A stretch of 26,182 nucleotides of DNA. Source: a virus (taxonomy: Duplodnaviria > Caudoviricetes). Positions 16,565 to 24,141 of this stretch are shown here, piece after piece (within the stretch, counting starts at the first letter, position 1; each line of letters opens with the position of its first letter). The stretch is from IMG/VR virus record IMGVR_UViG_3300027804_003508, positions 1 to 26,182 of that record. One strand, given 5' to 3'. Position numbers and translations under genes: made by a program. The notes under the pieces were generated by a model. The model was not told where the DNA came from, ran no database searches, and saw only the letters and a list, made by a program, of their open reading frames with translations.

Positions 16565-16775
16565 GGCATTAAACAGCTCTGTAGCTAAAGTAGTTATTGC
16601 CATAAGCCAAAACGAACTCCTATTACCTCCGCCTAAGTCGATTATCAAGGAGATAATCGAAGCAGATGCAAGGGTTTCTTTAGTAGATGCAATGCTGTTT
16701 ACCAAGGAAGCGTCCGCCAAGTTTAAGAAAGGCAGTGAAAATTTTATCAACCAATTAATAGAGCAAAAACAATGA
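16557..16775 (+). CDS. Small hypothetical protein
   Basis: GTG 16557 with GGAGG RBS; overlaps both neighbours. Confidence 0.6.
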   Translation: MSKALNSSVAKVVIAISQNELLLPPPKSIIKEIIEADARVSLVDAMLFTKEASAKFKKGSENFINQLIEQKQ

Positions 16776-17353
16776 CTAAATGGAATAACTTTAACGATGC
16801 AGAAGACCAGATGTCTTACGAATTAATACCTAATAAAACAATAGCAAAGGTTGGGCTATTACTTAAAAAAGGCAACCATATAACCGATGAATTTACTGAT
16901 GGCTATGCAACACTTAGTAAAGCAGGAACTAGTATATATTTAGCCTGCGAGTTTGTAGTCCTAAGCAGTCAGTATGAGAATAGAAAGGTCTGGAGCAATA
17001 TCGGTCTTTATAGTGATAATTCACCAAAATTCGCTCAAATAGGCAGAACTATGATCAAGTCAATACTTAACTCTGCTCACGGCTTGCATTCAAAAGACAA
17101 ATCACCAAAGGCGGAAAAACAGAGACAGATTAAGAGCTTTGCCGATTTAGATAACCTTATATGCCTAGCGGAGATTACCATTAATGACAAAGGTTATAAA
17201 CCTCGTAACGAGATCAAGACTATAATTACGCCCGATCATGCCAGATATAGCGAGTTTATGGACGAGAGAAGCGGAAAGTTTCCGATTAGTTATGGTTCAA
17301 CGAGTAATAGACAAAGTACCGGTGAGCTTATTAGTGATGAAATACCATTTTAA
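16772..17353 (+). CDS. Phage-type SSB-like protein (DUF669-like; resembles a phage WO replication-module protein)
   Basis: FNDAEDQ...LIPNKT, YLACEFVVL...YENRKVW, NEIK; acidic SSB tail SDEIPF. Confidence 0.7.
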   Translation: MTKWNNFNDAEDQMSYELIPNKTIAKVGLLLKKGNHITDEFTDGYATLSKAGTSIYLACEFVVLSSQYENRKVWSNIGLYSDNSPKFAQIGRTMIKSILNSAHGLHSKDKSPKAEKQRQIKSFADLDNLICLAEITINDKGYKPRNEIKTIITPDHARYSEFMDERSGKFPISYGSTSNRQSTGELISDEIPF

Positions 17354-17364
17354 AGAGGTTTCTT

Positions 17365-17718
17365 ATGAGTCAGGAAATACAGCAGAATATAACCAATCTA
17401 TACAACCTTATTGACGATTTGGATAATACTAGAGATTTGCTTGAGATCCGTTATTGGCTCTTAAATAGCAATCTTGGGGAAAACAATAATTATTTGACGG
17501 CTAGGTTCAACATAGAAAAGCAAAGGCCTATAGTTACCGAGCATTTAACTCGGCTATCGGAAGCGGTAGATGATCTTGAGATATATGTTCACCGATGCAA
17601 GGAGCTAGTTTTAGTAGAACGCGAAAAAGACCCTAAATTCGCTAAAGCATATGATAAATATTACGAAAAAACTCCAGAGGTAAAATACAAAGCGTTTCCC
17701 CCGATAATGAGCCGTTAG
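17365..17718 (+). CDS. Hypothetical helical protein
   Basis: GAGGT RBS; intact 117-aa ORF. Confidence 0.7.
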   Translation: MSQEIQQNITNLYNLIDDLDNTRDLLEIRYWLLNSNLGENNNYLTARFNIEKQRPIVTEHLTRLSEAVDDLEIYVHRCKELVLVEREKDPKFAKAYDKYYEKTPEVKYKAFPPIMSR

Positions 17719-17769
17719 TAGTGTCCTAGCAAAAGCGAAAAAACATTAAAAAAATCTAGACTCGAGAAT

Positions 17770-17933
17770 GTATGCTAATATTATTTTTAAGGACTCTACC
17801 TCTTCTGCAAGGCGGCAGAAGAGAGTAGTGCCGACAAAGCCATTAAAAATGACTAACCACGATGAGATACACAGGAATAACTACAAGACCCAACAAGTTT
17901 TTTAGTTATTTCTTAGATATCATTATAGCATAC
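17770..17933. ncRNA. Predicted multi-stem RNA upstream of the primase-helicase
   Basis: GTATGCTA/TAGCATAC close the region. Arm 1 is CTCTTCTGC-N6-GCAGAAGAG within TTATTTTTAAGG/CCATTAAAAATGA; arm 2 is AGGAATAACTA/TAGTTATTTCT. Each end overlaps an inward-facing extended -10. Confidence 0.55.
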
Positions 17934-18119
17934 TTTAAGGGAAGTGGAGATTTTTTTGCTTTCCTGACCTAATAAAATAATTAGCAATCATTCTTTAGTC
18001 GCAATTTAATGGCTTTTAAGTTATCCAAATAAATTAATACAACATATTTTTCTTACAAAATAATATCTCCAGTGGTATTAATGTAAAAATTTTATAATAG
18101 AAAGCTAAATATTAATTAT

Positions 18120-22048: not shown

Positions 22049-22076
22049 CATTCTATTAATTATAGACTTTTGAGAC

Positions 22077-22120
22077 AACCCATGAAGTTTTGGTGAAGAA
22101 CCCATGAAGTTTTGGTGAAA
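22077..22120. repeat. Two tandem 22-bp iteron-like repeats
   Basis: AACCCATGAAGTTTTGGTGAAG / AACCCATGAAGTTTTGGTGAAA. Confidence 0.92.
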
Positions 22121-22300
22121 ATCACCCTTCAACCCCTTATAAGGACTGGTGTTCAAATTCTTATAATATTTATAATTATATAATATTATAACGTAGCTCC
22201 CTTTTTCTCGCATAGCTTCAAAAGGTCGCTTTTCCTAGTAAGAAGAGAAGAGACCATTTTGTTATTATTAACCCCAACTGTAGCACCTTATAAGGGTTTA
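22077..22300. other. Putative replication origin
   Basis: Iterons; 31-nt pure A/T quasi-palindrome at 22161-22191; inverted AACCC(C)TTATAAGG boxes at 22131-22144 and 22286-22298. Confidence 0.7.
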
Positions 22301-22309
22301 TGGTATAAT
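22301..22309 (+). promoter_or_regulatory. Extended -10 promoter for polB
   Basis: TGGTATAAT about 30 nt before the ATG. Confidence 0.6.
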
Positions 22310-22338
22310 TGCGTTACCAAATTACCCTTAAGTAGTAT

Positions 22339-24141
22339 ATGGCCACAAATTTATTTATTGATACTGAATGCTATCCTAATTATTTCTTGCTAATGCTCAA
22401 ACTACCTGATGGTAAGAAGAGATATTTTGAATTGGATGAAACCCATAAATTGGATACAGAGACGATTGCTAAGTTTTTTAAAGAAAGACTGACGATTGGA
22501 TTCAACTCTCTCATGTATGATATACCTATGATTCTATATGCTCTTAGGGGAAAGAACAATGCAGAACTAAAAGAGTTGTCCGATAGATTGATAAGTAAAG
22601 AAGAGAAATCTTTTGATGTTATAAGTAAGCTTAGTTTGTGGTGTCCTAGTTATTTTGATCATATAGATATTTTTAAAATTGCTCCCGGTAAAGCTAGTTT
22701 AAAAATGTACGGAGGAAGAATACATGCACCGTTTTTACAGGATTTACCTTATGATCCAAGTAAAGCAGTAACTGAAGAACAAAAGGAGGAGTTAAAAAAA
22801 TACTGTTCAAACGATATAGATTTAACCATAAAACTTTTCAACTCTTTAGAAGAGCAATTGTTAATACGTCTTAATATTAATAAAGAATACAATATTGATG
22901 TACGTAGTAAAGGCGATGCTGGTATAGCAGAGATGTTAATGTTTAAATCTTTAGGCATATTAAAAATGAATATTTACGTCCCTGATAGTTATAAATTCCA
23001 GTATAGTCCGCCTAGCTATCTGGCTTTTAAAAGCGAAGAATTGCAAGAATTGGTAGCTACGATATCAGGATTAACTTTTAAGGGAATAAAAGGAGAAAGA
23101 AATTTCAAGGATGGAATACCCGGTGAAATTAATATTAATGGAAAGAGTTATAGTTTTGGTATAGGGGGCCTCCATTCCCAGGAAAAACACAGATCAATAA
23201 TTTGTCAAGATGACGAGCTACTGATAGATGTGGACGTAACTGGTCATTATCCAAAAATGATTATAGATAATAAGTGGTGTCCCGAGCATTTAGATAAAGA
23301 TAAATTTAATACTCTAATTAGTAATTTCTATAACGATAGGGTGGTAGCTAAGAGGGAGGGCAAAAAAGCAAAATCGGATACGTATAAAATTATACTTAAT
23401 AGCGTTTACGGCAAGTTTGGAGACGAGTATTCGTTTTTATATTCACCAAAATGTATGCTTCACACGACATTAACAGGTCAGCTTAGTTTGTTAATGCTGA
23501 TAGAAATGCTGGAAGAATGCGGGTTAAATGTAGTGAGTGCAAATACAGATGGTATTCTTGTTTATATCGTGAAAGCTGATTATCAATTATTTCAGTCTGT
23601 CTGTGAGGACTGGCAAGAGATATCTAATTTGAATTTAGAAGAAACAAAATACAAGGCTTTGTACAATGAGAGCGTTAATTCCTACATAGCCGTAAAAGAA
23701 GACGGCAGTTTAAAACGTAAGGGTTCGTTTGTAGAGGGTGATCTAGCTCACAACCCTACAATAAAAGTATGTATGGATGCTGTAATAGATTATATCCTTA
23801 AAGGGAAGCCCGTAGAAGATACCATTTTAAACTATGATACTAACCCTAGAAACTTCCTGATGGTAAGAAAAGTAGTGTCTGGCGGTTATTGGAGAGAACA
23901 ATATTTAGGAAAAATAGTAAGGTGGTACTGGTCAACTAAAGGAGATCCTATATATCGGAGGCTAGAGACTATGGAGCTTAAAAAAGACGGAACTCCTAAA
24001 AACGATCCTAAAGTAGCAGATAGTGATGATGCCTTTCCTATAATGGATTTGAGAGAAGGCCTAGTAAATATCAATTATGAAAAATATATCAATGAAGCCT
24101 ATACAATGTTAAAGAACCTTGGCGTAAATACCTCCGTTTGA
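22339..24141 (+). CDS. Phage-type family B DNA polymerase with 3'-5' exonuclease
   Basis: ExoI FIDTEC, ExoII GFNSLMYD, ExoIII YCSND; motif A DVTGHYP, motif B KIILNSVYGK, motif C SANTDG; YIA...KRKG. Confidence 0.93.
   Translation: MATNLFIDTECYPNYFLLMLKLPDGKKRYFELDETHKLDTETIAKFFKERLTIGFNSLMYDIPMILYALRGKNNAELKELSDRLISKEEKSFDVISKLSLWCPSYFDHIDIFKIAPGKASLKMYGGRIHAPFLQDLPYDPSKAVTEEQKEELKKYCSNDIDLTIKLFNSLEEQLLIRLNINKEYNIDVRSKGDAGIAEMLMFKSLGILKMNIYVPDSYKFQYSPPSYLAFKSEELQELVATISGLTFKGIKGERNFKDGIPGEININGKSYSFGIGGLHSQEKHRSIICQDDELLIDVDVTGHYPKMIIDNKWCPEHLDKDKFNTLISNFYNDRVVAKREGKKAKSDTYKIILNSVYGKFGDEYSFLYSPKCMLHTTLTGQLSLLMLIEMLEECGLNVVSANTDGILVYIVKADYQLFQSVCEDWQEISNLNLEETKYKALYNESVNSYIAVKEDGSLKRKGSFVEGDLAHNPTIKVCMDAVIDYILKGKPVEDTILNYDTNPRNFLMVRKVVSGGYWREQYLGKIVRWYWSTKGDPIYRRLETMELKKDGTPKNDPKVADSDDAFPIMDLREGLVNINYEKYINEAYTMLKNLGVNTSV

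Follow-up and report, generated by a model that had tools for sequence, protein, structure and literature searches.

How an iteron plasmid is copied when it carries a DNA polymerase of its own is the question raised by a 26,182-base contig filed as virus record IMGVR_UViG_3300027804_003508, the whole of which is called the window here. Host DNA polymerase III (Pol III) is commonly held to copy iteron plasmids, and no plasmid of this type is known that copies itself largely without the host replication machinery. The initial annotation of the window had described a self-contained replisome in five parts: a single-stranded DNA-binding protein (SSB), a primase-helicase fusion, an initiator related to chlamydial Pgp2, an iteron origin, plus a DNA polymerase of family B (PolB). 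Four of these, i.e. the fusion, the initiator, the repeats with their AT-rich tract and PolB, form a cassette that is real, conserved and under selection, whereas the SSB-like gene did not hold as part of the core. The open reading frames (ORFs) named in that annotation were all found intact on the plus strand. The cassette is a conserved union of a known plasmid replicon type and a known phage polymerase. Judged from its genes, the chances are about even that it replicates the element with PolB and largely without host DnaB, DnaG and Pol III.

Conservation of the cassette

The core loci are the window, L006-L012, the plasmid CP113870.1 and L017. Scans with the initiator alignment returned seven metagenome loci, one of which is the window's own contig, and one viral locus. 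L017 was added by a PolB scan and was the sole return of one genome-collection scan; its record is labelled Flavobacteriaceae but its gene set looks rickettsial, and its host is thus uncertain. The records holding L012 and L017 are incomplete, L008 reaches 25 codons into polB and L011 begins within the initiator.

In all nine other loci, namely L006-L012 and CP113870.1, which were found by the initiator alone, and L017, polB was located directly behind the repeats, so that the tie between polymerase and module presumed in the initial annotation withstood the synteny check. The linkage persists at 61-68% identity of the primase-helicase, 27-53% of the initiator and 69-72% of PolB, and L017 keeps the same gene order at 67%, 27% and 69%, respectively. 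All three genes are full length in the eight loci that are fully covered. The ratio of nonsynonymous to synonymous substitution rates (dN/dS), taken pairwise against the window, was 0.20-0.27 for the primase-helicase in four close pairs and 0.15-0.30 for the initiator, which gave 0.58 against L017 in a poor alignment with near-saturated synonymous sites. For PolB it was 0.09-0.15 in six of seven pairs, one being saturated, and it was the lowest of the three genes in close pairs. PolB is therefore under strong purifying selection, with a dN/dS of about 0.1.

The arrangement was also recovered independently of the record. Three DNA runs from three studies cover window positions 8000-26182, and a single 5.66-kb contig bridges 17430-23091 across the cassette, which shows that the gene order is not an assembly artefact. 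The window is a fragment, since another contig extends about 1.1 kb past its right-hand end. Terminal repeats are absent from its 26,182 bases and circularity is not indicated. In one RNA run, contigs span 17105-25371 of a relative; they possibly derive from DNA and give no evidence of transcription.

Table 1. Positions of the features discussed, core of the cassette first
Feature	Position in window	Strand	Remarks
DnaG-type primase/DnaB-type helicase fusion, 847 aa	18120..20663	+	core; Pfam DNAG_N, Toprim, DnaB_C
Predicted iteron-binding replication initiator, remote Pgp2/pi/RepE type	20660..22048	+	core; 462 aa from GTG, 456 aa from next ATG
Iteron-like repeats, 2 x 21 nt, 22-bp period	22077..22119	+	core; exact copies at 22077 and 22099; 3-5 copies in relatives
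A/T-only tract, 31 nt, likely DNA-unwinding element	22161..22191	.	core; conserved in 9-locus alignment
Extended -10-like motif, likely polB's own promoter	22301..22309	+	36-38 nt before start in 9/9 core loci checked
PolB of phage type, 600 aa, carrying 3'-5' exonuclease motifs	22339..24141	+	core; phrog_1252, 3.6e-163
SSB-like phage gene, acidic tail	16772..17353	+	accessory, not core; phrog_2300
117-aa ORF, unknown function	17365..17718	+	usually upstream of primase-helicase; no family match
DUF5681 ORF, 84-aa ORF, terminase-small-subunit-like ORF	24188..25368	+	accompany core in close relatives
Rickettsial plasmid dnaA-like protein, second candidate initiator	9033..10616	+	Pfam DnaA_N
Phage-like early arm: RecT, YqaJ exonuclease, HNH/HTH, 208-aa ORF, HTH regulator	4257..8250	-	

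The polymerase

PolB retains the ExoI-III motifs and the polymerase motifs A-C within a full-length phrog_1252 match, which places it with the phage 9g-type PolBs and agrees with the intact proofreading polymerase of the initial annotation. It is 38-42% identical to the polymerases of phages 9g, JenP1 and PHS21. Comparison with the groups named in PMC7544198 gave it no assignment. An asparagine replaces the first aspartate of motif C in 62 of 62 aligned rows, and the substitution is thus a family trait rather than damage. The best solved-structure matches span only about 90-150 of the 600 residues. At residue 459, a KRKG sequence is only loosely similar to the KTRG of the pipolin polymerase (piPolB). 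A second partial PolB match (42%) is present in the metagenome-assembled genome (MAG) holding L017, at G001:C185:3866-4318.

The primase-helicase

The fusion of TOPRIM and DnaB domains reported in the initial annotation was borne out by the Pfam domains. Zinc-binding, TOPRIM and DnaB helicase motifs all lie within one intact chain, and the zinc-finger cysteines, the TOPRIM acidic motifs, Walker A and the DnaB motifs are kept in 8/8 full copies compared. In close relatives, an acidic tail with a near-terminal phenylalanine closes the protein (window 20630-20663), and it is less clear in L017. This tail is reminiscent of the polymerase-binding tail of T7 gp4. In one MAG the primase-helicase is split into two pieces.

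The predicted initiator

The gene behind the fusion had been described as a translationally coupled ORF of 462 aa. The ORF is intact, but both this length and the GTGA overlap require the GTG start, and public records begin six codons later (456 aa). Sequence searches of Pfam, PHROGs, NCBIfam and the PDB gave the protein no name, and the Pfam Rep3 and Pgp2 models had no match above cut-off in any of 41 family members. A profile search collected 51 representatives, and five of the 30 Atlas matches were Rep3_N clusters.

The Pgp2 relationship proposed in the initial annotation was recovered as remote homology. When a 41-sequence initiator profile was compared with a seven-sequence Pgp2 alignment (hhalign), residues 180-422 aligned over 233 columns with a probability of 95.8 and an E-value of 7.3e-9; the score of 72.8 stood far above those of 22 controls made by reversal or shuffling (11-15) and of a pair of unrelated alignments (19-24). 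The link passes chiefly via the Simkania homologue, and C. trachomatis Pgp2 alone gave no match to the initiator in single-sequence tests (E 0.28-0.78). In parallel, the predicted structure (pLDDT 75) has the tandem winged-helix fold of pi, RepE and RctB. Its top match was pi (Z 10.7, root-mean-square deviation (rmsd) 5.1, 220 residues aligned), followed by RctB (Z 10.1, rmsd 4.4, 208 aligned) and RepE (Z 7.7, rmsd 9.5, 189 aligned), and a Z of 8 was reached by just two of the 48,161 chains searched. The same three proteins are reported as top structural matches for Pgp2 (PMC11895440). Profile and model together thus support the initiator as a remote homologue of the Pgp2 family.

The ORF that follows the primase-helicase of Criblamydia was considered as a further member of the initiator family and set aside (E 0.07-0.35); a 22-bp period nevertheless follows that ORF.

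The origin

The repeats and the A/T-only tract correspond to the iteron origin announced in the initial annotation. They have the layout of an iteron theta origin, with direct repeats spaced by about two helical turns and then an AT-rich tract, beside the rep gene, the window having only two copies. Apart from a repeat in a TPR gene, the origin repeat is the sole exact 21-mer repeat of the window. A period of 22 bp was the best in 9/9 core loci, with two to five copies as counted by eye. In L012 and L017, whose initiators are divergent, the sequence of the unit differs. The initiator likely binds these repeats, as predicted from its homology and from the covariation of repeat sequence with initiator divergence.

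No DnaA box with at most one mismatch was found in the origin region of the window. A perfect reverse-strand DnaA-box match lies inside the repeat unit in four of nine core loci, i.e. L001 (11564-11874), L007, L011 and L012, and a one-mismatch version in L009 and L010, with none in the window, L006 or L017. Where the box is present, the repeat site might be shared with host DnaA or with the dnaA-like protein.

Host and backbone

Window positions 17372-25371 are 91.8% identical at the nucleotide level over 8.0 kb to CP113870.1, a circular 57,422-bp plasmid (unnamed3) of Ca. Megaera polyxenophila NDG2, in agreement with the rickettsial host proposed earlier. This plasmid carries the same cassette (PolB 97%, primase-helicase 94% and initiator 92% identical) with its genes annotated in GenBank, the initiator as hypothetical. 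None of the other plasmids among the 72,556 searched has a close PolB, and none matches the initiator. Besides parA and a dnaA-like gene, CP113870.1 encodes RecT/YqaJ and terminase, and it differs from the window in lacking the SSB-like, AlpA and MT-A70 genes and in having TerL, parA and a UvrD-like helicase. An annotated protein with a Pol III epsilon domain is also present on CP113870.1, distant from the cassette (L002:2605-3564).

The backbone has a clear likeness to the Megaira phage MAnkyphage (OP381185.1), with which the window shares the SSB-like gene (75% nucleotide identity), YqaJ, the 208-aa ORF, the HTH regulator and DUF5681. With L017 the window shares the RecT, YqaJ and 208-aa genes. 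MAnkyphage differs in being complete, with the capsid, portal and tail genes of a phage, and in lacking PolB, the primase-helicase and this initiator. No capsid, portal or tail gene was detected among the 22 window ORFs scanned, nor among the 54 annotated features of CP113870.1 or the 21 of them that were rescanned. The ordinary full prophage that would have spoken against the initial annotation was thus not found, a result that depends mainly on CP113870.1 since the window is a fragment. With a left arm and an SSB-like gene resembling MAnkyphage and with no virion genes on the plasmid, the backbone is phage-derived but plasmid-like.

The combination of genes was not described in the literature searched on Megaera/Megaira, rickettsial plasmids and initiators, although it may be mentioned in passing elsewhere. 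The genome paper of NDG2 (PMC10847448) does not use the term 'polymerase' in its main text, and a term search of a survey of rickettsial plasmids (PMC4750851) returned neither polymerase, primase, helicase nor DnaB. In the same literature, the initiator assignment and a second type of replicon on Megaera plasmids seem not to have been described.

Relatives and mosaic origin

The plasmid half of the cassette resembles the chlamydial replicon. There too, a DnaB-type helicase (Pgp1) precedes the Pgp2-family initiator, and in C. trachomatis 22-bp repeats precede an AT-rich tract. The differences are that Pgp1 has no primase domain, that the origin of Chlamydia is not adjacent to pgp2 and that no such PolB is present. 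Plasmids of Geminocystis, Tenacibaculum and Flavobacterium have a DnaG-DnaB fusion together with a Pgp2 homologue annotated as hypothetical (Tenacibaculum L115:8689-9741, E 3e-34; Flavobacterium L004:9207-10199, E 8e-8; Geminocystis L110:2351-3382, E 4e-13). By sequence, Pgp2-type replicons therefore exist outside Chlamydiae. No plasmid of this group, that of Simkania included, has this PolB. In Geminocystis and Simkania, the 650-720 nt behind the genes showed no 22-bp array.

The polymerase half is of phage origin. From 106 PolB relatives, 80 viral loci were kept and four duplicates set aside, which left 76 outgroup loci. None of these has the primase-helicase or the initiator within 8 kb. 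Modules of the phage 9g, JenP1 and Nonagvirus type share the polymerase family and its motifs and differ in their partners, a VapE-type primase in 20 of the 76 loci and an SF2 helicase in 24.

The Megaera-type PolBs form one clade (100/100 support). This clade is not tied to the DnaG-type module alone, a point that the initial annotation had missed. In L013-L015, of which L013 and L014 seem to be a single element, the backbone of the window carries a PolB of 79-81% identity, and an SSB-like gene, an SF2 helicase and an unrelated PriCT2-VapE primase occupy the same slot, with a different repeat-rich spacer before polB. Within the cassette PolBs lie those linked to VapE (90/95), although a single cassette clade is not rejected (approximately unbiased test, p 0.11), the larger PolB tree being a quick tree only. 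The priming module has thus been exchanged at least once. In the loci seen of this clade, a primase always stands beside polB, be it DnaG-DnaB or PriCT2-VapE. Taken together, these comparisons of sequence identify the cassette as a mosaic of a plasmid module (primase-helicase and Pgp2-like Rep) and a phage polymerase.

Two other systems offer partial parallels. IncQ plasmid RSF1010 encodes its own initiator, helicase and primase at an iteron origin, as the separate proteins RepA, RepB and RepC, has no polymerase of its own and uses host Pol III. In pipolins, too, a mobile element or circular plasmid of bacteria encodes a PolB; they have no recognisable primase, and their piPolB has TPR1/TPR2 and a KH-X8-KTRG motif (PMC5695915). 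Here, the PolB is of phage type and an intact DnaG-type primase lies 1.7 kb upstream of it.

Which polymerase copies the element

We infer from sequence that the initiator binds the iterons and that the fusion has helicase and primase activity. In the mechanism proposed, the initiator would bind the 22-bp repeats and open the AT-rich tract. Unwinding and priming would fall to the DnaG-DnaB fusion of the element, and the phage-derived PolB would extend the primers that the fusion makes. The element would then replicate in theta mode with little need of host DnaB, DnaG and Pol III. RNA-primed phage polymerases are nearly always accompanied by a primase (PMC4889955). The fixed position of polB, the selection acting on it and the constant presence of a primase beside it leave the case for PolB, and not host Pol III, as the replicase at this origin roughly in balance. 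A broader reading is a little more doubtful. It holds that these elements form a family of Rickettsiaceae protist-symbiont plasmids with a self-sufficient T7-like fork, in which the initiator loads the DnaG-DnaB fusion at an iteron origin and the fusion works directly with a captured PolB. Three genes and an origin of 300 bp would then suffice for replication, with host DnaB, DnaG and Pol III dispensed with, and the priming cassette could be swapped for a phage VapE-type primase and its origin.

Several observations weigh against replication by PolB. No match to the clamp-binding patterns tried was found in PolB, and no processivity factor is evident. PolB has no match on the complete plasmids of Criblamydia, Geminocystis, Tenacibaculum and Flavobacterium that carry primase-helicase fusions, and these PolB-free relatives imply that this type of module works without it. 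Moreover, the linkage of polB is established for the nearer clade of initiator and primase-helicase relatives only. The extended -10-like motif before polB, found in neither of two VapE loci and only five times across the whole window, suggests that polB has its own promoter and need not be co-regulated with the initiator. Finally, the dnaA-like protein could maintain the element via host Pol III. Missed in the initial annotation, this protein was matched in 38 plasmids (27 of Rickettsia and 11 of Candidatus taxa; best 79%, on a Megaera plasmid), and of the 11 Candidatus plasmids CP113870.1 alone has the cassette. Regions with dnaA-like and parA genes are reported to support autonomous replication in Rickettsia (PMC3244465).

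The strongest alternative, which we regard as rather unlikely, is that the primase-helicase, initiator and iterons make up a real replicon working on host Pol III and that PolB is a neighbour with another role, such as gap filling, recombination-dependent synthesis with RecT and YqaJ, or occasional amplification. The PolB-free relatives and the separate promoter-like motif would fit such a role, as would the maintenance of the same PolB clade beside a different primase. RecT/Bet and YqaJ genes, which would fit it too, are carried by the window, CP113870.1, L017 and the L013 record. Chlamydial and IncQ plasmids do use host Pol III. This alternative has to account for polB keeping the same slot behind the origin in 9/9 loci, even at saturated synonymous divergence and with the genes on either side shuffled.

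Less probable still is that the cassette belongs to a temperate phage, phage-plasmid or satellite, in which the dnaA-like replicon would maintain the plasmid and the PolB cassette would amplify DNA for packaging into its own or helper capsids. The nearest outgroup PolBs are on viral contigs, the window itself is filed as a virus record, and the early-gene backbone and SSB-like gene are common to MAnkyphage. Terminase large and small subunit genes are found on CP113870.1, L012, L104 and the L014 record. The large subunit (L001:16738-18321, L104:3633-5276, L109 and L012:10192-11751) is intact and 89-94% identical among three loci, on elements without a detected capsid or portal gene. Against this reading stand the virion genes that were not detected in the window and CP113870.1, and a search of 50,697 phage records that gave no match to the initiator.

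A mosaic formed recently by chance, or a decaying relic, without joint function is highly improbable and largely refuted by the three full-length genes under purifying selection, despite the SSB-like and MT-A70 genes beside the cassette being broken or lost in relatives and the split primase-helicase of one MAG.

If PolB does replicate the element, this conserved iteron replicon with its own primed, proofreading-type polymerase would be an exception to the host-Pol III rule and a minimal three-protein replisome that could be rebuilt in vitro. It would also give a first biochemical handle on the large and structurally unsolved phrog_1252 polymerase family. In addition, the Pgp2 initiator family is extended to Rickettsiales, and plasmid and phage replication modules are seen to be exchanged within intracellular symbionts. 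Even with PolB as a mere auxiliary, the initiator assignment and the second Megaera replicon type appear new against the literature searched.

The SSB-like gene and other neighbours

The initial annotation had counted the SSB-like gene as the first part of the replisome. The gene is present, co-directional and ends in an acidic tail, conserved in 4/4 copies checked, but it does not adjoin the primase-helicase, from which a 117-aa ORF and a 400-nt gap separate it. It is absent from CP113870.1, deleted in L009, a stub in L010 and unmatched in the incomplete records of L012 and L017. A five-part unit with SSB was therefore excluded, the gene being missing from the complete plasmid and four other loci. 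It is intact before the cassette in L104, and L006, L007, L008 and L011 begin too close to tell. The protein is 70% identical to the MAnkyphage one and 37% to those of phage WO; it has no Pfam, NCBIfam or PDB match and falls in a PHROG of unknown function. An SSB role is suggested by its acidic tail and position only, and DUF669, found on 14% of one matching Atlas cluster, is a weak lead. Single-strand binding is probably supplied by the host or by this optional phage gene. The 117-aa ORF was not found in L012 or L017.

Between the SSB-like gene and the dnaA-like gene, window positions 14727-16564 hold an AlpA regulator, a fusion of ParB-like and MT-A70 methyltransferase domains and an overlapping 189-aa ORF of unknown function. 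The position of the methyltransferase is shifted in L012 and L017, and the gene is truncated in L104. A 471-aa ORF at 13033-14448 has no family match and is 94% identical in L104. In the same way, positions 11615-13076 code for a RelB-like/YafQ toxin-antitoxin pair and, behind it, a nucleotidyltransferase-HEPN fusion, a set that is present in L104 too. At the left end, positions 170-3824 carry cargo of symbiont type, i.e. a DUF805 membrane protein and two TPR proteins, one of them with a leucine-rich repeat.

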